This document shows, one piece after another, positions 5,606 to 59,817 of a stretch of 64,000 nt of DNA. Position numbers and translations under genes: made by a program. Under the pieces are notes generated by a model. That model did not search any database, was not told the DNA's origin, and worked only from the letters and a program-made list of their open reading frames with translations. The stretch is from Escherichia phage Ec_Makalu_001. The DNA lies in the sequence record MN894885.1. The stretch is one strand, 5' to 3'. How positions within the stretch are numbered: the stretch's first letter is position 1; each line of letters begins with the position of its first letter.

Positions 5606-6376
5606 ATGAATATTATCCGAATAAAACTACCGGAAGGTGTACAGCGATTTAAACCATTCACGGTAAAAGATTATAGAGATTTCCTTCTGGTGTCAACTGA
5701 AATTAAGATGAATCCAGAAGAAGAACAAACTATACTGGATGAGCTACTAGAAGAAATATATCCAGACGTAGACCCTGCATTTCGTGAATATATTTTCCTG
5801 AACGTTTTTACTAGCTCAATAGGTAAAACAAAGATACCGCTTTGCTTTACTTGCCCGACTTGCAACAAAGAAAGAAAAATGTTGCTCAACTTACAGGTCG
5901 AAGCACTAAAACCAATCGTTCTGGAGGCCGCAGGGCTTAAAATAACTTTCCGGTATGTGAAACCATCAACCGACTATGCAAAAACGTTTCTAGATGCGAT
6001 AGAGCGTGTCTCTGATGGTGTTAATGATTATCTATGGACTGAATTACCGGAAGAAGTTAGAGATCAGGTTATCGATTCAATCTCATTTGCTGAATTTGAA
6101 GAAGTTGTTAAGCAGATGCACACGATCAAGATCGAACAAAAGATATCTTGCTGTGAAAGTCATGACCTGAAATACATAGGTCTTCTTCCATTATTCAAAT
6201 TGTTGTTGAATCCAGATGAGTTATTCATCTTTTATCGAATAAACCATCTATTGGCAAAATCAAATTATTCTATCAGTGATCTTATGGACATGTTACCCGT
6301 CGAGAGAAACATTGCACTGACACTGGTCGAGAAAGACGTAAAAGAGGCAAACAATGCAAAGAACGGGGTTTCCTAA
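5606..6376 (+). CDS. 51: baseplate hub assembly catalyst gp51
   Basis: 256 aa; divergent from 26; TATAAATA late promoter at 5578-5585; T4 synteny. Confidence 0.6.
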   Translation: MNIIRIKLPEGVQRFKPFTVKDYRDFLLVSTEIKMNPEEEQTILDELLEEIYPDVDPAFREYIFLNVFTSSIGKTKIPLCFTCPTCNKERKMLLNLQVEALKPIVLEAAGLKITFRYVKPSTDYAKTFLDAIERVSDGVNDYLWTELPEEVRDQVIDSISFAEFEEVVKQMHTIKIEQKISCCESHDLKYIGLLPLFKLLLNPDELFIFYRINHLLAKSNYSISDLMDMLPVERNIALTLVEKDVKEANNAKNGVS

Positions 6377-13040: not shown

Positions 13041-13059
13041 TTTAAACCTCCCATATAAC

Positions 13060-13093
13060 AGAAAACGGGGCTAGTATAAAACTAGTCCCCGTT
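13060..13093 (-). terminator. rho-independent terminator after alt
   Basis: Stem AACGGGGCTAGT / ACTAGTCCCCGTT with T-run on minus strand. Confidence 0.5.
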
Positions 13094-13119
13094 TGAGTCA
13101 ACCATTATTTCTTAAAAAA

Positions 13120-15451: not shown

Positions 15452-15522
15452 TTGATACTCCTTAGTAGTTCGTTTCGGTATGGGTGTATTATGATATACA
15501 CCCTCTGTTATGTCAACAACTT

Positions 15523-15702
15523 TTAGAACATTTTTGAAATTAATTCTGCTTTGATTTCGCAGAGAACATCTAAAGATTTCTCGTCACCCGCTTTTGCTGC
15601 TTCTGCTTGCATTTTTGAAATGGCTTCAATGTCAGTGCAATTATAAGCCGCTTGAACTTTAGCGATTGCGATGATTGCCGATTCGATGGTTAAGTGTTTC
15701 AT
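15523..15702 (-). CDS. hypothetical protein (59 aa)
   Basis: Manual ORF below track cutoff; ATG 15700-15702 preceded by GGAGAATCA RBS and promoter 15735-15763. Confidence 0.35.
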   Translation of the reverse strand: MKHLTIESAIIAIAKVQAAYNCTDIEAISKMQAEAAKAGDEKSLDVLCEIKAELISKMF

Positions 15703-15734
15703 GTTTGATTCTCCTTTCGTTTCGGTATGTGTGC

Positions 15735-15763
15735 AGTACAGGGGATCGCCGATCCCCTGTCAA
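15735..15763 (-). promoter_or_regulatory. early sigma70-like promoter, palindromic spacer (TTGACA-GGGGATCGGCGATCCCC-TGTACT)
   Basis: Read on minus strand; -35 consensus, 17-bp inverted-repeat spacer with two GATC, weak -10. Confidence 0.45.
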
Positions 15764-17826: not shown

Positions 17827-17866
17827 TGTTTGATTCTCCTAAGTGGTATCTCGTCTTGATGGTTGT

Positions 17867-17895
17867 ATTGTAGGGGAGTTATCCTCCCCTGTCAA
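17867..17895 (-). promoter_or_regulatory. early sigma70-like promoter, palindromic spacer (TTGACA-GGGGAGGATAACTCCCC-TACAAT); drives 5-gene cassette
   Basis: Minus-strand -35/-10 with 17-bp inverted-repeat spacer, A-rich UP region. Confidence 0.55.
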
Positions 17896-17909: not shown

Positions 17910-18077
17910 TTATTTGTTAATTTCTGGTGCGTTGCTAGGATAGTAACCTTCTTTAACTCCGAGGTATTTCGCAACCATCCCTACAATCTTCTGTGCTACT
18001 ACAATGTCAAATTTCAGATAATCTTCGCCGTGGGTTTCAATGATATATGCTTCACATGCTGCTTTAGTCTCGAACAT
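17910..18077 (-). CDS. hypothetical protein (55 aa), duplicate copy A
   Basis: Manual ORF MFETKAACEAYIIETHGEDYLKFDIVVAQKIVGMVAKYLGVKEGYYPSNAPEINK; near-identical to 21193-21360. Confidence 0.45.
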   Translation of the reverse strand: MFETKAACEAYIIETHGEDYLKFDIVVAQKIVGMVAKYLGVKEGYYPSNAPEINK

Positions 18078-18110
18078 TTTGATTCTCCTATTTCGTTTCG
18101 GTATGTGTGT

Positions 18111-18139
18111 ATTATAGGGGATCTCCCGATCCCCGTCAA
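18111..18139 (-). promoter_or_regulatory. early sigma70-like promoter, palindromic spacer (TTGACG-GGGATCGGGAGATCCCC-TATAAT)
   Basis: Minus-strand; consensus -10; two GATC in spacer. Confidence 0.55.
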
Positions 18140-18435: not shown

Positions 18436-18505
18436 TTTTGATTCTCCAGTTCGTTTCGGTATGGGTGTATTATGCTATGTTCTTACTTTGGTGTCAACAA
18501 CTTTT

Positions 18506-18775
18506 TTAGATATTTTCAGAAATAAATTTTAAAACTTGACGTAAATGTTTCTCATCTTTGATAGTCGCCGGAAGTTCTTCTTTTACTTCCTGTGCAAGAT
18601 AGATATTTCCGTTCCAAGTGAAAGACCCGTCTTCGTTTACGCGATAGCTGAACATCCATTCGCAATCATTTTCGATTTCATATACACACAGAAGGGTGTA
18701 ATCTTCAAAGCTATTGATTTCAAGGTCGAAGCCGTGGCGTTTTGCAAAGTTGGTAGTGGTTTTAGTCAGTGCCAT
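18506..18775 (-). CDS. hypothetical protein (89 aa)
   Basis: ORF with GGAGAATCA RBS and upstream promoter-like motif. Confidence 0.45.
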   Translation of the reverse strand: MALTKTTTNFAKRHGFDLEINSFEDYTLLCVYEIENDCEWMFSYRVNEDGSFTWNGNIYLAQEVKEELPATIKDEKHLRQVLKFISENI

Positions 18776-18901
18776 TGTTTGATTCTCCTAAGTGGTATCT
18801 CGTTTCGATGGGTGTATTATGCTATAGGCGTGATCAGGTGTCAATGCCTTTTTTAAAATTTTATGCAATAAAAAAGCCGACACTAAGGTCGGCTAATAAA
18901 A

Positions 18902-19547: not shown

Positions 19548-19630
19548 AATTTGATTCTCCTAGTTAGAAAGTGTATCTCGTTTCGATGGGTGTATTATGC
19601 TATACACCCGATCTTATGTCAACACTTTTT

Positions 19631-21128: not shown

Positions 21129-21192
21129 TTTGATTCTCCGTTTGTTTTCTTGATGGGAGTATCTTACTACTCCCTTTAATCATTGTCAACTA

Positions 21193-21360
21193 TTATTTGT
21201 TAATTTCTGGTGCGTTGCTCGGATAGTAACCTTCTTTAACACCCAGATATTTTGCAACCATTCCGGTGATCTTCTGTGCTACTACGATATCGAATTTCAG
21301 GTAGTCTTCACCGTGGTTTGCTACAATGTATGCTTCGCATTCTGCTTTAGTCTCGAACAT
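21193..21360 (-). CDS. hypothetical protein (55 aa), duplicate copy B
   Basis: MFETKAECEAYIVANHGEDYLKFDIVVAQKITGMVAKYLGVKEGYYPSNAPEINK; start at ATG 21358-21360 with GGAGAATCA RBS; promoter 21395-21423. Confidence 0.45.
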   Translation of the reverse strand: MFETKAECEAYIVANHGEDYLKFDIVVAQKITGMVAKYLGVKEGYYPSNAPEINK

Positions 21361-21394
21361 TTTTGATTCTCCTATATCTCGTTGGTATGTGTGT

Positions 21395-21423
21395 AGTATA
21401 GGGGATCTGCGATCCCCTGTCAA
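21395..21423 (-). promoter_or_regulatory. early sigma70-like promoter, palindromic spacer (TTGACA-GGGGATCGCAGATCCCC-TATACT)
   Basis: Minus-strand; upstream of duplicate copy B. Confidence 0.5.
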
Positions 21424-21930: not shown

Positions 21931-21987
21931 AATATTATCCTCAATTTGTGGGAGAGTATTACCCCTCCCAATGATTGTTATGTTATA

Positions 21988-22505: not shown

Positions 22506-22539
22506 GTTTGATTCTCCTAGTTCGTTTCGGTATGTGTGT

Positions 22540-22569
22540 ATTATAGGGGAGTTTAACCTCCCCTGTCAA
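22540..22569 (-). promoter_or_regulatory. early sigma70-like promoter, palindromic spacer (TTGACA-GGGGAGGTTAAACTCCCC-TATAAT)
   Basis: Minus-strand; 18-bp inverted-repeat spacer. Confidence 0.5.
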
Positions 22570-22889: not shown

Positions 22890-22934
22890 TTTTGATTCTC
22901 CGTTTAAGAAAGTGTGTTTCGTTTTGATGTGTGT

Positions 22935-22963
22935 AGTATAGGGGATACGTGATCCCCTGTCAA
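22935..22963 (-). promoter_or_regulatory. early sigma70-like promoter, palindromic spacer (TTGACA-GGGGATCACGTATCCCC-TATACT)
   Basis: Minus-strand; upstream of 103-aa gene. Confidence 0.5.
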
Positions 22964-22976
22964 CAACTTTTTTGAA

Positions 22977-23453
22977 TTATTTTTCTTGATGCTCGCGCTC
23001 GTACTTTTCGAAATAAAATTCTACTGGCTGGTCATGAATTGACAGCAAGCCAAAGCGTTTAGCCGCTCGCAATCCCATATTGCGCTGAATGTACTTCTGG
23101 AAGTTCTCGCGTATACACTTACGCCAGTATTCTAAGCCCATACAGCTTTTATAAAGATTGCATTGCACACACGCCGGATTCATGTTATCAAGTATATCAT
23201 GCTCCGGTTTATGCATTCCTACAACCTTATACTTCCACGATCCATCATCGTTACGGGCAATGCGACCATTTTCATCATAGACTACTTTTGAGCGTCGTAA
23301 TACTGGTTTGATGTGGTCTGCGTGCCAGCGATCCCCTAGTTCCTCACCACAATAGGCACAACGTCCACCGTATTTCATTTTCAGGATCTGGCGTTGCTCT
23401 TTCTTTGACAATTTTTTAGGTTTAGGGGCTTTCGCCCCTTCATTATCACACAT
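22977..23453 (-). CDS. HNH endonuclease
   Basis: 158 aa; CAYCGEELGDRWHADHIKPV ... N ... CVQCNLYK (Cys4 / H-N-H pattern). Confidence 0.6.
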   Translation of the reverse strand: MCDNEGAKAPKPKKLSKKEQRQILKMKYGGRCAYCGEELGDRWHADHIKPVLRRSKVVYDENGRIARNDDGSWKYKVVGMHKPEHDILDNMNPACVQCNLYKSCMGLEYWRKCIRENFQKYIQRNMGLRAAKRFGLLSIHDQPVEFYFEKYEREHQEK

Positions 23454-24948
23454 CGAATACCTCTTTTACTGTATTTGCAGTGGTCTTGTCGTAGCGAATA
23501 CGTTTGATGATTGGGAGAAATAAAGAGAACTCCGGTTCATCTTCTTTACGTGATTTGCTGCGAATGTACCCGTTGCATGTCATCTCAATGACTTTTCCAA
23601 TCAGGTTATGACGGTCAGCCCATAACATTTCTCGGTCGAGTTCATTTCGACGATCGAACGGAATTACACGTTCAATACCATCATCATCTTTTTCGGTTGT
23701 GGTGTCGGTCAATCCCGATCCGGTGTTAGTCGTCATTCGTCCGCACGCACTACGGACAGTAAAACCGCCTACCTTGTTAGGATCTTTACTATGCGGATAT
23801 ACATCAACAATTTCCGCGTCGAAGTCAATCACTTCTTTAAATTTAACCTGATCTTTACTGCGACGATCTTCAAATACACCATGTAAATTTTTAAGGATAA
23901 TACCTTCCAATCCCATGTTTACATAGCGATGATATACTTCGCGAGCTTCATCGATATTGTTAACTACAGTGTTTTCGATTATCTGAACACGAGGATCGTT
24001 AAGTTCTTCAACAATCTGTTTTAGTTCTTCGAATCGATCTTTATATTGCTTCGTTGCTTTCTCGTTTCCGTAATACACATCACGGTCGATAACATCCCAG
24101 ACAGTGTAAACAATACATTGGGCTTCTTCTTTTGGAATAGTTCCTTTCAGTGATTTGTTGAGGATACCATTTCCGGTCTGACGGTCTGCAACAACGGATT
24201 CTTTCACTGCTTCCGCTACTGGCGTTAATGGCATTTCCTCTTCTTCAAATATCCATGATAGAGTACCATCATAAACGCTCTCAACGAAGTTCTGCGCTGG
24301 TGTTTGAGAAAGGGTAGGCATATATACCAACTCACCATCTAAAACAATTCCACGGCCTCGTAGACGCTCTAAAACAGCAAACAAATCATCCAGCCCCTGA
24401 TAGGTATTACCTGAACGGGTATAGATTGCTAATGTTTCTCCGTCAATATCAGCCATACCACGAGCGCCATCGCTTTTAAGTTGTGCATACGCCGGATATT
24501 TGATATTGGCAATAGTCTTATCAGAACATGACGATGCAAGGTGGCAAGGTTGCTGAGGAATCAGCTTCTTCCATACCTTGTTTGCGGTGGTAGCGGAACA
24601 ACCGCATTCCAGATCACGATTCAGGACCATCATTGCAACTTTAGCATCATCTTCTGACAAGCAAGTCAGAGTATCGGTAACTAGCTGTAATGCAGCATTA
24701 CCAGTTACTTGACGCGTGGCAAGTTTATTTTTAAAGACCTGTAATGCACCGGATAAAGACAATACAGACGAATAGCGAGACGGTTTATCGTATTTCTTTA
24801 CGCCAAACGTAACCTGCTTGCAATATGCCAGATAAAAGCATTCTTTCAGCGTTTCATTGCTTGCAGATTCTTTCAGGATCTTTTCTTTCAGCGATGTTTT
24901 GTCAGTGGCTGCAAGCTGATTAATGATATTAAGAATTGACATTTTCAC
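23446..24948 (-). CDS. 30: ATP-dependent DNA ligase gp30
   Basis: 500 aa; similarity to T4 DNA ligase incl. FPAYAQLKSDGARG (KxDG adenylation motif) and DGELVY. Confidence 0.9.
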   Translation of the reverse strand: MKMSILNIINQLAATDKTSLKEKILKESASNETLKECFYLAYCKQVTFGVKKYDKPSRYSSVLSLSGALQVFKNKLATRQVTGNAALQLVTDTLTCLSEDDAKVAMMVLNRDLECGCSATTANKVWKKLIPQQPCHLASSCSDKTIANIKYPAYAQLKSDGARGMADIDGETLAIYTRSGNTYQGLDDLFAVLERLRGRGIVLDGELVYMPTLSQTPAQNFVESVYDGTLSWIFEEEEMPLTPVAEAVKESVVADRQTGNGILNKSLKGTIPKEEAQCIVYTVWDVIDRDVYYGNEKATKQYKDRFEELKQIVEELNDPRVQIIENTVVNNIDEAREVYHRYVNMGLEGIILKNLHGVFEDRRSKDQVKFKEVIDFDAEIVDVYPHSKDPNKVGGFTVRSACGRMTTNTGSGLTDTTTEKDDDGIERVIPFDRRNELDREMLWADRHNLIGKVIEMTCNGYIRSKSRKEDEPEFSLFLPIIKRIRYDKTTANTVKEVFDV

Positions 24949-30758: not shown

Positions 30759-30828
30759 CTTGATACTCCTTAGTTGTTTTGGGATGGGAGTATCTTACTA
30801 CTCCCGTGATATGCTGTCAACTGCTTTT

Positions 30829-30978: not shown

Positions 30979-31045
30979 TTGATTCTCCTTAAAGTGTATT
31001 TCGTTTCGATGGGGGTATATTACTACCCCCGTTTCATGCTGTCAA

Positions 31046-31264: not shown

Positions 31265-31333
31265 TTTGATTCTCCTTTGTTTCGTTTCGATGGGAGTATC
31301 TTACAACTCCCAATATTCAGTGTCAACTGCTTT

Positions 31334-31552: not shown

Positions 31553-31652
31553 ATGTTCCTCCGTTTCGATGCGTGCATTATGCTATGGCAAGATCCGATT
31601 GTCAACACCCAATAACAAAAAAGTCGCCACTATGGGCGACTTAGGTTAAACA

Positions 31653-33642: not shown

Positions 33643-33872
33643 TATCCGACAACCTCAAAACATTTATCATCAGGAAGAATAGCCCATTCTACGCCGTATT
33701 CATCCTTAACGTAGTAGCAAGTCCCATCATGTCGAGCATCATATTCATCACCGACAACAAAGCTATCAGCTAGCTCAAAATCTACAGCAACACATTTTAA
33801 TTTTGCCATAATAAAATCCTCATTTGTTTTTGATGGTTGCATTATAGCGGGGATTTCTCCCCGCGTCAACAC
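33642..33872 (-). CDS. hypothetical protein (76 aa)
   Basis: ORF with promoter (TTGACG - palindromic spacer - TATAAT) at ~33845-33875. Confidence 0.4.
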   Translation of the reverse strand: MLTRGEIPAIMQPSKTNEDFIMAKLKCVAVDFELADSFVVGDEYDARHDGTCYYVKDEYGVEWAILPDDKCFEVVG

Positions 33873-38953: not shown

Positions 38954-39008
38954 AATATAATCCTCACTTTGTTTCGATGTTTGTATTATACATCATCTGT
39001 GTTCGGCG

Positions 39009-39338
39009 TCAACCTTTTTGTTCCATGAAAAGCGGTGCTGTTTCTTCTTTCAGTTTAATAACTAGCGCGGAAACTTCATCAAGAAAATCTTTTTCCATAT
39101 GAGCAAGCAATGATTTAGAATCTTTGATAACTTTCAAAGAATATTCACTTAGATTTCCTTTTCCTAACAATAATGCAGGGTACACACTATGCGGTATCTC
39201 GATTTCATGATATTCACTCATAGTATAATATTTGTGAATTTTTAAATCTATATTTCTTCGTTGTACGTCTACATCAGCAATGACATACAGAAGTTCGATT
39301 TTATCACTTTTCTGGGAAAGGGTAGCATTCAAAAACAT
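39009..39338 (-). CDS. hypothetical protein (109 aa)
   Basis: ORF with promoter-like motif at ~39345-39400. Confidence 0.4.
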   Translation of the reverse strand: MFLNATLSQKSDKIELLYVIADVDVQRRNIDLKIHKYYTMSEYHEIEIPHSVYPALLLGKGNLSEYSLKVIKDSKSLLAHMEKDFLDEVSALVIKLKEETAPLFMEQKG

Positions 39339-39383
39339 TGTTAATCCTCCGTTGTTTCGATGAGTTCATTATACACTATTGGG

Positions 39384-40607
39384 TTACGCTGTCAACTCTT
39401 TTTCAAAAGATTTTACGATATACATGATAGTGCTCAATTCAGACGGCGCTACTGTTTCGGTGTAGCCATCCGGCATATCTTCTTTCGAGATATAGGAAGT
39501 CTTGCCTTTCATCGCTTCCTTGATCTTGTTCTCTAATTCTAAGATCTTTTGACCGTCTTGTAAAGTCAATTCATAAAAGATCTCGTGACCGAACTTTGAA
39601 ACACGAGATTGGTTTCTCATGCGCTCATGTGTTTCTTTGTTTGTTATTCCAAATTTCACGCCAACAAAGGAATCATTGTTGGTTAATTTCTGTATATAAA
39701 GAGTTCCTGTCTTTAATGCCTGATAACCATGCTTAGAACACAACGGGCAGCGTGTTCCGCGATTAACAAAATTATCAATAGTTACATCCCATTCATGGTT
39801 ACGTTCGCATGTCAGAAGTATTCTTGTTAATGCACCTTTCCACTTTCCTGAAATCCCAATAAATTTTAGTCTGTTGGTTTCGCATATTTTTTCAATTTGT
39901 TTTAATCGGTCACTTTTTGTTATTGGTGCTGTTCCGCTACATTTGCGACACCGACGACCTAGTTTGAACTTATCATAACTTTGTTCGTAAATGTGATTAT
40001 TAGGACACTCAAATTTAAGTTTAGTTTTTGTTCCTCTCCATTCCCCAATTATACCCAAAAATTTATAATCTCCTTTATTTTCATTTATATAAGATAAGGA
40101 ATCTTCTTTATCATGCATCTTGCCCCCGTTACATAAAGGACATCTTGTTTTTTGATGAATGAAATCTGTATATGTTGGTTGGTATGTGTGTCCGTTTGTA
40201 CAGTTCATAATGAGTCTTGTTCTGCTATTTTTATACTCCCCACCAACAAAACCAACAAATACATCGTTTGTTTCTTGTTTTATTCTTTCTATCACATTGT
40301 TTGGGTTTAATCTTTGAGAATCAACCACACATTTCTTACACGAAACTTTTTTCCTGATATTTGCTAGAGTTGATGTGTATTCATGCTTGTTATTACATAA
40401 TATAAGAGCTTTTGTTTTGAGACCAGACCATTCTCCAACAAACCCCATGAAAGAATAACCAACTTCCAAACATGAATTTTTTACAACATTTTCCCAATAG
40501 AAGGGAGTTTTCGTGTTTCCTTTTATTTCTATACGAATCTCATGTGCTTGACGTACTAACATATTTTTATCCTCCGTTGTTTCGATGTGTGTATTATACA
40601 TTACCAC
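39384..40607 (-). CDS. protein with four tandem zinc-ribbon modules and C-terminal GIY-YIG-like (T5orf172-type) domain; putative homing-endonuclease-like
   Basis: 407 aa; four ~55-aa repeats each F/I-x-G-x-x-G-E/K-W ... C-x-x-x-H ... C-x-x-C; C-terminus LYIQKL...VGVKFGITNKETHERMRNQ. Confidence 0.45.
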   Translation of the reverse strand: MVMYNTHIETTEDKNMLVRQAHEIRIEIKGNTKTPFYWENVVKNSCLEVGYSFMGFVGEWSGLKTKALILCNNKHEYTSTLANIRKKVSCKKCVVDSQRLNPNNVIERIKQETNDVFVGFVGGEYKNSRTRLIMNCTNGHTYQPTYTDFIHQKTRCPLCNGGKMHDKEDSLSYINENKGDYKFLGIIGEWRGTKTKLKFECPNNHIYEQSYDKFKLGRRCRKCSGTAPITKSDRLKQIEKICETNRLKFIGISGKWKGALTRILLTCERNHEWDVTIDNFVNRGTRCPLCSKHGYQALKTGTLYIQKLTNNDSFVGVKFGITNKETHERMRNQSRVSKFGHEIFYELTLQDGQKILELENKIKEAMKGKTSYISKEDMPDGYTETVAPSELSTIMYIVKSFEKELTA

Positions 40608-40648
40608 ATCAGCACGTCAACACCTTTTTCATAAAATTTTAGGCAATA

Positions 40649-51396: not shown

Positions 51397-54339
51397 ATGG
51401 CAGATTTAAGCAGAATCCAATTTAAACGTACTAGCACTAAAGGCCGTCGACCTGATGCTGGTACGATGAATCCGGGGGAATTGGCAATCAACCTTGCGGA
51501 TCAATATCTTCTTACTAAAAATGATTCCGGCGCTATTATCAATTTAAGTTGTCCTCCGGTTTATGACCGTGATGTTACAATGGCGGGTAAGGTTAAAGGA
51601 AATAATTATATTTTAAGTAAAACCGCCAATTATCTGGAAGACCAGACAGCGAGAGATCTTAACTACTTTGGTGCTTTCCGTACCAATAGTCTAGATGGAC
51701 TCATGGATCTAACCCTTAACGTTCCTCACTCTTCCGGTAAAGCGCATGGTCGAGGATTTACTTTCCGTTATGGGACTGGCGGATCTCGTGTTGAAACCTA
51801 TGGTTTTGATGTTCAGGGACAAAAAGCATTTAGTTATAAAATGTATCATGAAGGGGATAAACCGACTCCCTCAGAATTGAACGTTTATAGCAAACAAGAA
51901 GTTGACCGTATGTTTGTTAAAACCGTTAAACTTGCTACAGTTCCTGTTGATATCGTTGACGGTTATTTTAAATTAGCAACTGCATTGATTCCGCAAAACG
52001 GTCGTAGTGTATTTTTCCGTATTCATGGTGGTAACGGATATAACGTTACTGCATACGATCAAGTTGATATTGTAGAAATTGTTATTCGCAGTGGAAATAA
52101 TCGTCCTAAAGGTGTTAACGTTATTGCATACCGCCGAAATACAAACAAAGCATTTGATGTTTTGGCTGTTAATACTTCTGGTGATAACTATGATATCTAC
52201 GTGAAATATCAGCGTTACACTGATAACGTTATTGTTGAATTTGGTAAAAGTGTTGATGTTGATCTGGTGGTTCATGACGTTCCAGACTTTGTTGTTGATC
52301 GTCCTGTTGGTGATAATGTTATTGGCGGTCGCGCGGTAACTCTTTTTAACACCGAAAACAAACGAGGTGTGTTGAGTTTTGACGATAACACACAAAATAG
52401 TTATGATATTGTTCACTTGAGTAATGATAAAGGTACTGGAAGGAAATATATTCGTAAATTCCGTAGTAACTATAATGAAATGATCTGGCATGAGACGGTT
52501 CAAGGTTCCAGTTATCGACTCGCCACGGGTAGTACAGATGCTCAGGAAATTATAACTATTGAATCTAGTAGCTCAATTGCTGGAACTCATAAAGGTAATA
52601 TTATTTCTGGTCGTATGCTGTTAAATGGCGGATCTAATGCCATTACACTACGCCGACCTGCTGGTCAGTCTAATCATATCGCTTTTCAGGATAACCGCAC
52701 CGGAGATATTACTCGTCAAGGATGGATCGGTTATGCAAACGCTGATACTAACGTTTTTGAATGGTATAGTGATGTAGGCGGTAGTTCTATTCGTCAACAT
52801 ATTGACGGCCAGATAGAACTTCAAACTGGCAATATGAAGCGAGTTTATACTAACGCTCAATTCATCTCAATGAATAGCGACGCCTACCGTATGCTCTATG
52901 GTAATTATGGTGCATTCTGGCGTAATGACGGCGTTAAAGTTTATCTTCTTTCTACTGCCGAAAATGATAAATTGGGCGGATGGAATACTTATCGTCCATT
53001 CATTTATGATTTAACTTCCGGTAACGTTCAATTAGGTGGTGATGGTAACGAAGATGCATTAACTTTAGAATGTGCTTCTCGTGCCGCTCGCTTTAGTAAT
53101 GACGTTTACATTAAGAAAGGGCTTTTGACTTTCGACGCTGGGCGCGCTGGGTCTCGCGATTATATTCGATTTAATCATTGGGGTGATAGCAATAATGCTC
53201 GTGATAACGTTTTGTACATAGAAGATAGTCAAGGCCGACATTTTAGCACAGAACGTGCGATGGGTACTGGTGCTCTTAAAGCATACTTCTTAGGCGATCT
53301 TGAAGTCGGTGGTAAGTTTACTTGGGGTAAAAATACAGCTACATCTAGCTTTAATATTCGTGCATGGGGTAGTGATTCTCGTAAGCAAGTATTAGAATGC
53401 GCGGATGAAAGTGGTTGGCATTGGTATACCCAGCGACCGGGCGGTCCGGGTACTTCGGCAATTGAGTTTGCCATCAACGGTACTGTTAAGCCTCAAGCAA
53501 TTCATACTGGCGGCAATATTCTTTTGAACGGTGCCGATATTGAATTTCGTCGCACCGGTAATAAGCATTTGTGGTTTAGAGATCCAGACGGTTTAGAGTT
53601 AGGCTTGATGTACTGCGATGATGCTGGTGCTATTCGCTTCCGTGGTCAGAAACAAGCCCAGACGTGGAAATTTGCAGATAAAATGATCCAGTTGGAATCT
53701 GGTACTGTATCTGGTGGCGGTAATGGCCTGATTCGTGGTGAAGTTGCTGGCGGTAGTTGGGCTAGCTGGCGTGACCGTCCTGCTGGTCTTATGGTTGGGT
53801 GTCCTCAATCCGTTGACTCGGCACATAACGTATGGAAAGCGACGCATTGGGGTAAATATCATATCGCAGCAATGGGTGTACATGTTCCTAGTGGTACTAT
53901 TACCAATGCTTTAGCTCGCCTAAACGTTCATGACGCCAACTTTGACTTTAGCGCCTCCGGTGACCTGTCGGTAGGTCGTAATGGTTCGTTTAACGATGTT
54001 TATATTCGTTCTGATGCTCGCCTTAAAATCAACAAAGAAGAGTATAAAGAGAATGCCACCGATAAAGTTAATCGCTTGACGGTATACACCTATGACAAGG
54101 TTAAATCTTTAACCGACCGTACTGTCATTGCTCATGAAGTTGGTATTATTGCTCAGGAACTTGAAAAAGAATTGCCGGAAGCAGTAACAACTTCTAAGGT
54201 CGGCGATCCTGATAAGCCAGAAGAGATCTTAACAATTTCTAACTCTGCTGTCAACGCTCTTTTAATTAAGGCGTTTCAGGAAATGAGCGAAGAATTGAAA
54301 GCCGTTAAAGCTGAACTAGCGGAACTTAAAAAGAATTAA
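51397..54339 (+). CDS. 37: long tail fibre distal subunit gp37 with C-terminal intramolecular chaperone-like domain
   Basis: 980 aa; position after 36; C-terminal ~120 aa (SDARLKINKEEY...VGIIAQELEKELPEAV...coiled-coil) resembles the self-cleaving chaperone domain of endosialidase/T5 pb1-type fibres. Confidence 0.7.
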   Translation: MADLSRIQFKRTSTKGRRPDAGTMNPGELAINLADQYLLTKNDSGAIINLSCPPVYDRDVTMAGKVKGNNYILSKTANYLEDQTARDLNYFGAFRTNSLDGLMDLTLNVPHSSGKAHGRGFTFRYGTGGSRVETYGFDVQGQKAFSYKMYHEGDKPTPSELNVYSKQEVDRMFVKTVKLATVPVDIVDGYFKLATALIPQNGRSVFFRIHGGNGYNVTAYDQVDIVEIVIRSGNNRPKGVNVIAYRRNTNKAFDVLAVNTSGDNYDIYVKYQRYTDNVIVEFGKSVDVDLVVHDVPDFVVDRPVGDNVIGGRAVTLFNTENKRGVLSFDDNTQNSYDIVHLSNDKGTGRKYIRKFRSNYNEMIWHETVQGSSYRLATGSTDAQEIITIESSSSIAGTHKGNIISGRMLLNGGSNAITLRRPAGQSNHIAFQDNRTGDITRQGWIGYANADTNVFEWYSDVGGSSIRQHIDGQIELQTGNMKRVYTNAQFISMNSDAYRMLYGNYGAFWRNDGVKVYLLSTAENDKLGGWNTYRPFIYDLTSGNVQLGGDGNEDALTLECASRAARFSNDVYIKKGLLTFDAGRAGSRDYIRFNHWGDSNNARDNVLYIEDSQGRHFSTERAMGTGALKAYFLGDLEVGGKFTWGKNTATSSFNIRAWGSDSRKQVLECADESGWHWYTQRPGGPGTSAIEFAINGTVKPQAIHTGGNILLNGADIEFRRTGNKHLWFRDPDGLELGLMYCDDAGAIRFRGQKQAQTWKFADKMIQLESGTVSGGGNGLIRGEVAGGSWASWRDRPAGLMVGCPQSVDSAHNVWKATHWGKYHIAAMGVHVPSGTITNALARLNVHDANFDFSASGDLSVGRNGSFNDVYIRSDARLKINKEEYKENATDKVNRLTVYTYDKVKSLTDRTVIAHEVGIIAQELEKELPEAVTTSKVGDPDKPEEILTISNSAVNALLIKAFQEMSEELKAVKAELAELKKN

Positions 54340-57909: not shown

Positions 57910-57979
57910 AATATATTCCTCAATGTCTTGTCTTGATGGGAGTATCTTACTACTCCCTTAATCCGGTGTCAACTACTTT

Positions 57980-58135: not shown

Positions 58136-58166
58136 TTTGATTCTCCATCGTTGTCTTGATGAGTTT

Positions 58167-58195
58167 AGTATAGGGGATCACCGATCCCCTGTCAA
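58167..58195 (-). promoter_or_regulatory. early sigma70-like promoter, palindromic spacer (TTGACA-GGGGATCGGTGATCCCC-TATACT)
   Basis: Minus-strand; upstream of 51-aa gene. Confidence 0.5.
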
Positions 58196-58417: not shown

Positions 58418-58482
58418 GTGATTCTCCTTTCGTTTGGTATGGGAGTATCTTACTACTCCCTTTTCTTTACGTCAACTGGTTT

Positions 58483-58724: not shown

Positions 58725-58788
58725 TTTTTATTTCCTCCAGTTCGTTTCGGTATGGGAGTATAATACTACCGATGACCTTTGGCGTCAA

Positions 58789-59433: not shown

Positions 59434-59499
59434 CTTTGATTCTCCTTTTGTTTGGTGTGGGAGTATTTTACTACTCCCTTGTTCTGGTGTCAATAGACT

Positions 59500-59706: not shown

Positions 59707-59817
59707 TTTTTGATTCTCCTGTTGTTTCAGTTTGGGTGTATTATGCAATGTTTGATTATGGGAGTCAACAACTTTTCAAATAAAAAAGCCGACCACAAGG
59801 ATCGGCTTAATAATCAA

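Follow-up and report, generated by a model that had tools for sequence, protein, structure and literature searches.

Promoter-early stem-loop (PeSL) cassettes have been described for the phages RB49 and phi1 by Arbiol et al. 2010, with ~50 copies per genome (PMC2839356). They comprise an AT-rich tract, consensus sigma70 boxes, a G/C stem-loop at one of five positions, a Shine-Dalgarno (SD) sequence and a start codon, with conservation extending across nearly ~100 bp; promoter and terminator activities were shown, and PeSL-to-PeSL recombination yields mini-circles, one mapped crossover lying between the -10 box and the SD (PMC2839356). Neither this paper, in which 'leader' and 'untranslated' are without match, nor Comeau et al. 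2014 (PMC4122927) singles out the block between -10 and SD. We analysed this block in a 64,000-nt stretch of Escherichia phage Ec_Makalu_001 (MN894885.1; the whole stretch is called the window), where the focal site occupies positions 15734-15703 of the minus strand upstream of an ATG at 15702. Judged by its sequence layout, the complete element is a PeSL cassette as published for RB49-like phages. The block within it, which a preliminary description had taken for a post-transcriptional control site common to many early transcripts, is in our judgement probably the start-site and initial transcribed region of these strong sigma70 early-promoter cassettes, doubling as an open leader of the mRNA.

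The window cassettes share with the PeSLs of RB49 and phi1 the genus, the layout with near-consensus TTGACA-N17-TATAAT, the small ORFans and the location in hyperplastic regions, whereas the start-site register, T avoidance and cross-family recurrence found here for the block do not figure in the PeSL papers. In position, the block resembles the region at +1 to +20 of the very strong sigma70 promoters T7 A1, lambda PL and T5 N25. At its annotated start site T7 A1 has C followed by ATCGAGAGG (longer, ATCGAGAGGG), and lambda PL has C followed by ATCAGCAGG; both share C(-1) and ATC(G/A) from +1 with the window block. Unlike these promoters, the window block is one specific sequence that occurs about 25 times in this one genome and again across phage families. 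Escape efficiency is known to depend on the initial transcribed sequence (ITS). A study of 262,144 ITS variants associated slow escape with two to three T's, often as TG, in the first ~7 nt, and faster escape with more stable, better stacked RNA/DNA hybrids, and argued that the ITS is part of the promoter definition (Heyduk and Heyduk 2018).

Architecture, register and composition of the block

The window was searched for TTGAC-N16-18 with a -10-like hexamer, an SD and an open reading frame in succession behind it, and the result was curated manually. This yielded 29 minus-strand promoters, 25 of which form one cassette family with the order A-rich tract, TTGACA, stem-loop, -10, SD and ATG (Table 1). 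Their boxes, TTGAC(A/G/T) and, after 16-18 nt, a TATAAT-like hexamer, with AAAAAGTTG upstream, conform to the sigma70 consensus. The focal cassette reads AAAAAGTTG-TTGACA-GGGGATCGGCGATCCCC-TGTACT-GCACAC-ATACCGAAACGAA-AGGAGAATCAAAC-ATG. Hairpins of -9 to -19 kcal/mol, falling into three stem-loop classes, are predicted in 19/25 cassettes, and a few promoters with the +1 block have a weak hairpin or none. The cassettes end, on the 3' side, in the SD and start codon belonging to a small ORF or ORFan, and they are clustered in hyperplastic regions of this RB49/phi1-type genome.

Directly 3' of the -10 box follows a 6-nt discriminator, ACNC(C/A)C, and then AT(AC)C(G/A)A(A/G)AC(G/A)A, which occurs in two sub-variants, ATC(G/A)A(A/G)AC and, with a 2-nt insertion, ATACC(G/A)AAC. 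The block was found at all eight starts for which a shared leader had been proposed (15702, 17826, 18077, 18435, 18775, 19547, 22505 and 58417). The ~20-nt consensus given for that leader captured the block itself, but its form fits one sub-variant and its first six bases are the discriminator, which is predicted to be untranscribed. Since ACCGAAACGA occurred 17 times at up to one mismatch (4.2 expected) and the generalised motif CAT(AC)?C[GA]A[AG]A[CA] had 33 copies in the window compared to 5.7 in shuffles, the block is real and far above chance. When the cassettes were aligned on the -10 box, the strongest positions after the hexamer were discriminator A1, C2, C4 and C6, followed by A and T. 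C(-1), which is discriminator C6, A(+1) and T(+2) were present in 28/29, 26/29 and 25/29 cassettes, respectively, and are about as conserved as the -10 box itself, whose last T was present in 29/29.

In common with the cassettes, rRNA P1 promoters have an A-rich tract upstream, TTGACA and a discriminator rich in C, with C as the second base 3' of the -10 box; this base is found in 23/29 cassettes. The discriminator is 6 nt long in the window and 8 nt in rrnB P1. In rRNA promoters, C two bases after the -10 box weakens the open-complex contacts of sigma region 1.2. By analogy, the discriminator C would weaken these contacts in the cassettes, which would suit a near-consensus promoter in need of fast clearance.

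All 21 promoter-linked copies of the motif start at the seventh nucleotide after the -10 box, with TTGAC at -35. The remaining 12 of the 33 copies lie within coding sequence, none of them at an SD, and no copy preceding an SD without a promoter was found in the window. Between +1 and the SD lie 8 to 27 nt, and the 5' untranslated regions (UTRs) measure 18 to 40 nt. A block that is fixed to the -10 box and variable to the SD argues against an operator placed relative to SD or AUG; its register is that of an ITS element, set by the -10 box and start regardless of which gene follows. The A of CAT is the seventh base after the -10 box, the usual start distance of sigma70 promoters, and the early-promoter logo of RB49, drawn to the start site, prefers C at -3 to -1 (Nolan 2006). 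According to Nolan 2006, the RB49 consensus agrees with the 5'-end mapping of Desplats et al. 2002. ACACCC or ACACAC lies upstream of the predicted start and therefore outside the transcript of that cassette's own promoter, and the transcribed remainder of the originally proposed leader is, on the predicted start, the extreme 5' end of the mRNA. Being anchored to the -10 box, confined to promoters and for one third untranscribed from its own promoter, the upstream block does not behave as the shared post-transcriptional site it had been proposed to be.

Between +3 and +10, T occupies 1 of 200 positions, compared to 28% on the strand and 17% in generic consensus promoters, and TG occurs in 1 of 25 cassettes, so that the absence of early T and TG that characterises fast escape is present. 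The leader preceding the SD consists of A.51, C.24, G.10 and T.15. Read as RNA, the block is AUCGAAACGA. The predicted 5' ends fold weakly, less than shuffles (mean z +0.67), and among Rfam 15 covariance models none matched at gathering score, one chance-level match (E 0.26) lying elsewhere; the structure check suggested at the outset thus returned open leaders rather than a conserved fold. Comparison by eye with the respective consensus gave no fit to Hfq (ARN)n repeats or CsrA GGA-in-loop sites, nor to a sigma70-dependent pause element (a -10-like hexamer) or an optimal NAD-capping context.

We propose that the C-rich discriminator, the start with C at -1 and AT from +1, and the T-free, purine/C-rich ITS ATC(G/A)A(A/G)AC(G/A)A would together fix the position at which E. 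coli RNA polymerase starts. Without T/TG pausing and abortive-cycling elements, the polymerase would quickly clear a near-consensus promoter, and the early mRNA would gain a short (18-40 nt), unstructured, U/G-poor 5' end with the SD left open. As a further layer, the conserved stretch would supply homology for PeSL-to-PeSL recombination that shuffles small early genes.

Constraint on the block and its recurrence in other phages

Among 406 cassette pairs the mean spacer identity was 0.35, compared to a null of 0.32. In the 215 pairs with random-like spacers, identity was 0.50 from +1 to +14 (composition-matched null 0.39) and 0.57 in the discriminator (genomic null 0.31), and spacer similarity barely predicted leader similarity (rho 0.13). 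The promoters at 40620, 39395, 39012 and 31605 carry CATCGAAAC despite unrelated spacers and no or weak predicted stem-loops. Orthologues of 11 cassettes were compared in GEC-3S, G2248, E26 and RB49, which are related genomes and not independent samples. Variable sites amounted to 4/208 (1.9%) in the transcribed leader, compared to 31/440 (7.0%) at third-codon positions (p=0.005) and 28/188 (14.9%) in the spacer (p=1e-6); the corresponding counts were 2/131 for SD-to-ATG, 7/66 for discriminators and 6/66 for -10 hexamers. Two of the four leader changes turn ATCGAAAC into ATCAAGAC, another accepted variant. These are purine-to-purine changes at 18804 and 18806 on the minus strand, seen among Krischvirus orthologues of one cassette; because the orthologues of the 18776-18844 cassette switch between both forms, ATCGAAAC and ATCAAGAC interconvert. 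Conservation is thus more than recent duplication and the block is under purifying constraint. The suggestion that duplicated promoter cassettes might account for the leader fails because conservation extends beyond recent whole-cassette duplicates, being seen in pairs with random-like spacers, in slow orthologous change and in other phage families.

These comparisons make it improbable that the block is a functionless passenger of mobile cassettes, homogenised by PeSL recombination or gene conversion and merely supplying homology. PeSLs do recombine, and the crossover mapped between -10 and SD lies inside this block; the cassettes are mosaic, with ATC and ATACC variants cutting across stem-loop classes, one small gene is shared together with its cassette with T1-like phages, and duplicated gene-plus-cassette units occur at 21360 and 18077. 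However, in the same cassettes the spacer was free to diverge, both among orthologues and, to random-like levels, between paralogues, and the block was not. Moreover, the -35 and upstream sequences differ between T1-like phages and Krischvirus while the +1 block is common to both, and the near-total avoidance of T at +3 to +10 together with the register strictly kept in at least 99 unrelated clusters of promoters (see below) indicates selection on the sequence.

Selection might instead act on the RNA, the block being a 5'-terminal mRNA element whose pppAUCGAAAC end shields the transcript from 5'-end-dependent decay or RNase E, or which serves as an S1/30S standby or enhancer site. Among orthologues, the transcribed leader tolerates less change than the untranscribed discriminator and the -10 box do, conservation continues past +12, the leader is U-poor, A/C-rich and predicted to be open, and T depletion reaches to ~+17 in the listed matches of the metagenomic scan described below. 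The whole 18-40 nt UTR would fall inside the ribosome footprint, and a 5'-end element would show the fixed -10 register equally well. Nevertheless, we regard this as doubtful, as +1 and SD lie anywhere from 8 to 27 nt apart, window genes without their own promoter lack the motif in their translation-initiation regions, and the highest conservation, from -1 to +3, straddles the start and includes an untranscribed base.

The pattern TTGACA-N16-18-TAnnnT-N5-CATCGAAAC was scanned against IMG/VR and occurred in at least 120 stretches; the 125 matches among those listed group into at least 99 clusters when spacer and downstream sequence are compared, and two thirds of them have an SD and start codon within 70 nt downstream. 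The composition-matched permuted 9-mers CATCAGACA and CATACGACA were found in 38 and 15 stretches, and CATCGAAAC displaced by +4 (N9) or -3 (N2) in 1 and 10 stretches, respectively. Past the 9-mer, the listed matches have G/A at +9 and A at +10, with T at no more than 8% through +12 and low to ~+17, and several continue as in the window (ATCGAAACGAGATA). One match family comprises ~45-kb Salmonella/E. coli siphoviruses, and two listed matches lie in one contig of 233,234 bp. For two of the matching loci, megablast gave no named relatives. The ATACCGAAAC variant was present in three IMG/VR contigs only, two of them Krischvirus-sized; by this distribution it is a Krischvirus-restricted local derivative with a 2-nt insertion, the general form being ATC(G/A)A(A/G)AC. 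In a bacterial-genome scan for promoter plus motif, the listed matches were mostly background-like and had no extended T-poor leader, with ~50 expected by chance in 596 Gb.

Early promoters of the distant T4-like Aeromonas phage 44RR2.8t (7751, 13501 and 38859) consist of GTTTACA-N17, a -10 box and a start at C(-1) followed by ATCAAATC, a genus-specific version of C(-1) followed by ATC(A/G)AA. The 89-aa ORFan at 18775-18506 (MALTKTTTNFAKRHGF...) has homologues in T1-like Drexlerviridae by distant blastn, and together with its leader (18506-18844, minus strand) it has DNA homologues of 70-80% identity in KarlJaspers, Sazh, tonnikala and other T1-like Drexlerviridae; a match to the 3' portion of the gene exists in T5-like Av-05 as well. 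Upstream of the KarlJaspers homologue lie TTAAAG, a stem-loop over the -10 box and ATCGAAACGAGATACC, identical over 16 nt to the window cassette, and upstream of the Sazh homologue CATAAT-gcattc-ATCGAAACGAACCGGAG. The ORFan with its promoter cassette looks like a case of horizontal transfer between phage families. KarlJaspers (30000-51474) also has a cassette of its own in at least 12 copies, composed of AATAGCACTTTTTG-TTAAAA, a GC inverted repeat or stem-loop, (C/T)ATAAT-nnnnnC, an A/C-rich start, GAGGA and ATG, with ATCG or ATCA as the start in at least 8 of 12. T4-like phages are therefore not the only ones with a PeSL-like architecture. As the -35 and upstream sequences differ (TTAAAA compared to TTGACA) and the +1 block is common in spite of a GAGGA SD, the block is independent of GGAG-type SDs.

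Strict register in unrelated phages raises the tentative possibility that C(-1) followed by ATCGAAAC(G/A)A forms a separate element, so far without a name, that is promoter-proximal or 5'-terminal, is read by the host machinery and spreads with mobile promoter/stem-loop cassettes found beyond the T4-like phages. It would be read by RNA polymerase in the course of initial transcription or by a factor that acts at the 5' end of the mRNA, and its users would include strong early promoters of T4-like Krischvirus, T1-like Drexlerviridae, ~45-kb Salmonella/E. coli siphoviruses and many uncultured phages. Full-text literature searches with ATCGAAACGA, CATCGAAAC, AUCGAAAC, ATACCGAAACGA and the T1-like TAGCACTTTTTG returned unrelated primers only. 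The literature searched gave no description of CATCGAAAC recurring in locked register, nor of PeSL-like cassettes in T1-like phages, and both are new in that sense.

The SD block and RegB

The T4 RegB/S1 site, GGAGRAYARAA, depends on ~7 nt on the 3' side of GGAG, with no specific sequence needed on the 5' side (Durand et al. 2006, PMC1702504); A is favoured at positions 6, 8, 10 and 11, and GGAU is a rare alternative (PMC1702504). RegB cuts between GG and AG, and S1 stimulates the reaction. The window cassettes share with this site GGAG in an early SD, an A-rich 7-mer following it, predicted single-stranded RNA and a lineage that encodes RegB. The likeness is limited to the SD block, position 8 in the window is C instead of A, and the RB49 RegB is divergent. 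The SD is of GGAG type in 21/25 cassettes and of GAGG type in 4/25. GGAGAAUCAAA agrees with the T4 consensus at 10/11 positions; over the cassettes, the match is 11/11 in one (GGAGGATAAAA) and 10/11 in 15/25 (GGAGAATCAAA, with C at position 8), the rest having 2-3 mismatches. RegB cleavage of the cassette SDs, restricted to the SD block, is plausible, and as a further layer of the proposed mechanism GGAGAAUCAAA would be a plausible target by which phage RegB shuts early mRNAs off later in infection.

In RB49 (AY343333), regB is located at 51556-51978 (Pfam REGB_T4, E=1e-48), near tk and vs, and a 2010 review describes its product as divergent but active. The homologue asked for in the preliminary description was thus present in RB49, whereas tblastn found no regB in the window, outside of which it lies; beside hoc and gene 24 in GEC-3S there was none either. 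The SD of RB49 regB itself (upstream piece, 5980-6000) reads GGAUAAUAAA, that is, GGAU followed by the A-rich RegB consensus, which is consistent with the published autoregulatory cleavage of regB.

The idea of a RegB-like target fits the SD block only, and a repressor or RegB role of the upstream block is unlikely. That the upstream block is the operator of a phage post-transcriptional regulator, such as a RegA-like repressor, or belongs to a RegB site, would agree with RegB being encoded by RB49-type phages, with the adjoining GGAGAAUCAAA and with the presence of the block in many early transcripts. But RegB/S1 requires sequence 3' of GGAG and none 5', GGAG follows the block at anything from 8 to 27 nt, four cassettes pair the block with a GAGG-type SD that lacks GGAG, and no conserved RNA structure was found. 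The T1-like phages and many unrelated IMG/VR phages, which are unlikely to have one phage-specific regulator in common, own the block as well, and a translational repressor specific to one phage cannot explain this distribution. The operators of T4 RegA consist of unstructured AU-rich RNA that covers or adjoins the AUG. With its A/C-rich composition (T.15) and a variable distance of 18-40 nt to the AUG, the upstream block is unlike them. Taken together, we consider an operator function very improbable.

A second conserved class of translation-initiation region, GAGGA(A/T)(A/T)(A/T)TATTATG without GGAG, was observed at 57910-57924, 38954-38968, 33810-33824 and 21931-21945 on the minus strand, and similar regions are present in Klebsiella phage RCIP0006 and several IMG/VR matches. 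Because it is AU-rich beside the AUG and lacks GGAG, this class may be RegB-resistant and possibly of RegA type.

Weighing of the evidence, genomic setting and significance

Several points weigh against the interpretation of the block as start-site and initial transcribed region. The position of +1 at the A of CAT is itself predicted, from spacing and the published RB49 consensus. Among orthologues the discriminator and the -10 box vary more than the transcribed part, and the leader past +12 is likewise conserved, which a pure initiation role leaves unexplained and which points to RNA-level or translation-initiation constraints. For the RegB layer, C at SD-block position 8 departs from a strongly A-biased position of the T4 site. 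The randomised-ITS study found no single fast-escape consensus (Heyduk and Heyduk 2018); selection for escape predicts T avoidance and composition, not one 9-16-mer across phage families. Finally, 137 unselected phage sites of the form TTGACA-N17-TATAAT-N5-CAT included no ATCGAAAC start and were mostly ATA. The idea of ATCGAAAC as general optimum of strong promoters was rejected on this count (0/137), and since none of these promoters has it, ATCGAAAC is one class of start and not universal. As its specificity is unexplained by escape, common descent via horizontal cassette transfer, or an extra unrecognised factor, is needed in addition.

The 4-kb stretch around the focal site is 97-99.8% identical to Krischvirus genomes (Ec_Makalu_002, GEC-3S, phi1 and RB49 relatives). 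The focal region lies between alt and the DNA ligase gene (gene 30) and is dense with small hypothetical minus-strand genes, many of which are preceded by an annotated promoter in the GEC-3S record. In the phage collection, the DNA ligase (23449-24942, minus strand) has 59 records of at least 95% protein identity, the next best being ~45% (Klebsiella T4-like phages); by ligase protein identity in this collection, Krischvirus is an isolated genus. Near-identical 55-aa paralogues, MFETKA(E/A)CEAYI...PSNAPEINK, are encoded at 21193-21423 and 17910-18139 on the minus strand, each with its own cassette, and as judged from this similarity they (starts 21360 and 18077) are a duplicated gene-plus-cassette unit. 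At 13041-13101 (minus strand), the promoter stem-loop GGGGACTAGT...ACTAGCCCC overlaps the -10 box and is followed by GTTTTCTG; this promoter begins with GTTTTC and lacks the ATC...AAAC start, and its stem-loop looks like a true intrinsic terminator.

Table 1. Parts of the focal cassette and promoter cassettes of the window (+1 positions are predicted; the sequence beginning at +1 is given in parentheses)
Feature	Coordinates	Strand	Predicted +1	SD	ATG	Remarks
Focal -35 TTGACA	15758..15763	-				3' of A-rich tract AAAAAGTTG
Focal PeSL stem-loop ACAGGGGATC-GGC-GATCCCCTGT	15738..15760	-				Spans -35/-10 spacer; predicted fold of promoter segment, dG -18.9 kcal/mol
Focal -10 TGTACT	15735..15740	-				17 nt from -35
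Focal discriminator GCACAC	15729..15734	-				Family consensus A-C-N-C-(C/A)-C; upstream of predicted start site
Focal initial transcribed block ATACCGAAACGAA	15716..15728	-	15728 (A)			Position fixed relative to -10
Focal SD block AGGAGAATCAAAC	15703..15715	-				GGAGAATCAAA, candidate RegB/S1 site, 1 mismatch to GGAGRAYARAA
Cassette	15452..15516	-	15481 (ATACCGAAACGA)	15461	15451	
Cassette	17827..17895	-	17860 (ATCAAGACGAGA)	17839	17826	
Cassette	18078..18139	-	18104 (ATACCGAAACGA)	18088	18077	
Cassette	18436..18497	-	18462 (ATACCGAAACGA)	18447	18435	
Cassette	18776..18844	-	18809 (ATCGAAACGAGATACC)	18788	18775	Gene and leader homologues in T1-like phages
Cassette	19548..19622	-	19587 (ATCGAAACGAGA)	19560	19547	
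Cassette	21129..21189	-	21154 (ATCAAGAAAACA)	21139	21128	
Cassette	21361..21423	-	21388 (ATACCAACGAGA)	21372	21360	
Cassette	22506..22569	-	22533 (ATACCGAAACGA)	22517	22505	
Cassette	22890..22963	-	22928 (ATCAAAACGAAA)	22901	22889	
Cassette	30759..30820	-	30785 (ATCCCAAAACAA)	30769	30758	
Cassette	30979..31045	-	31010 (ATCGAAACGAAA)	30988	30978	
Cassette	31265..31326	-	31291 (ATCGAAACGAAA)	31275	31264	
Promoter	31553..31605	-	31570 (ATCGAAAC)		31552	Weak stem-loop (predicted dG -3.7); GGAGG immediately after ATCGAAAC
Cassette	33810..33869	-	33834 (ATCAAAAACAAA)	33821	33809	GAGG-type SD
Promoter	38954..39012	-	38978 (ATCGAAACAAAG)		38953	Unrelated spacer; GAGG-type SD
Promoter	39339..39395	-	39361 (ATCGAAACAACG)	39350	39338	Unrelated spacer; no predicted stem-loop
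Promoter	40563..40620	-	40586 (ATCGAAACAACG)		40562	SD block GGAGGATAAAA, 11/11 RegB consensus
Cassette	57910..57972	-	57937 (ATCAAGACAAGA)		57909	GAGG-type SD
Cassette	58136..58195	-	58160 (ATCAAGACAACG)	58146	58135	
Cassette	58418..58475	-	58440 (ATACCAAACGAA)	58427	58417	
Cassette	58726..58788	-	58753 (ATACCGAAACGA)	58738	58725	
Cassette	59434..59493	-	59458 (ACACCAAACAAA)	59445	59433	
Cassette	59707..59768	-	59733 (AAACTGAAACAA)	59719	59706	

Altogether, these data turn a supposed regulatory operator into the start-site end of known PeSL cassettes, with a probable RegB cut site in the SD. The part worth pursuing is the register-locked CATCGAAAC in unrelated phages together with the PeSL-like cassettes of T1-like phages. 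If the block measurably helps the polymerase to clear the promoter or raises the performance of the mRNA, it would offer a small, transferable part for strong expression and a natural case for counting the initial transcribed sequence in the definition of bacterial promoters. The block also marks gene-plus-promoter modules that move between phage families. More broadly, one start sequence serves unrelated phages at a constant register, and the T1-like phages possess their own PeSL-like cassettes.

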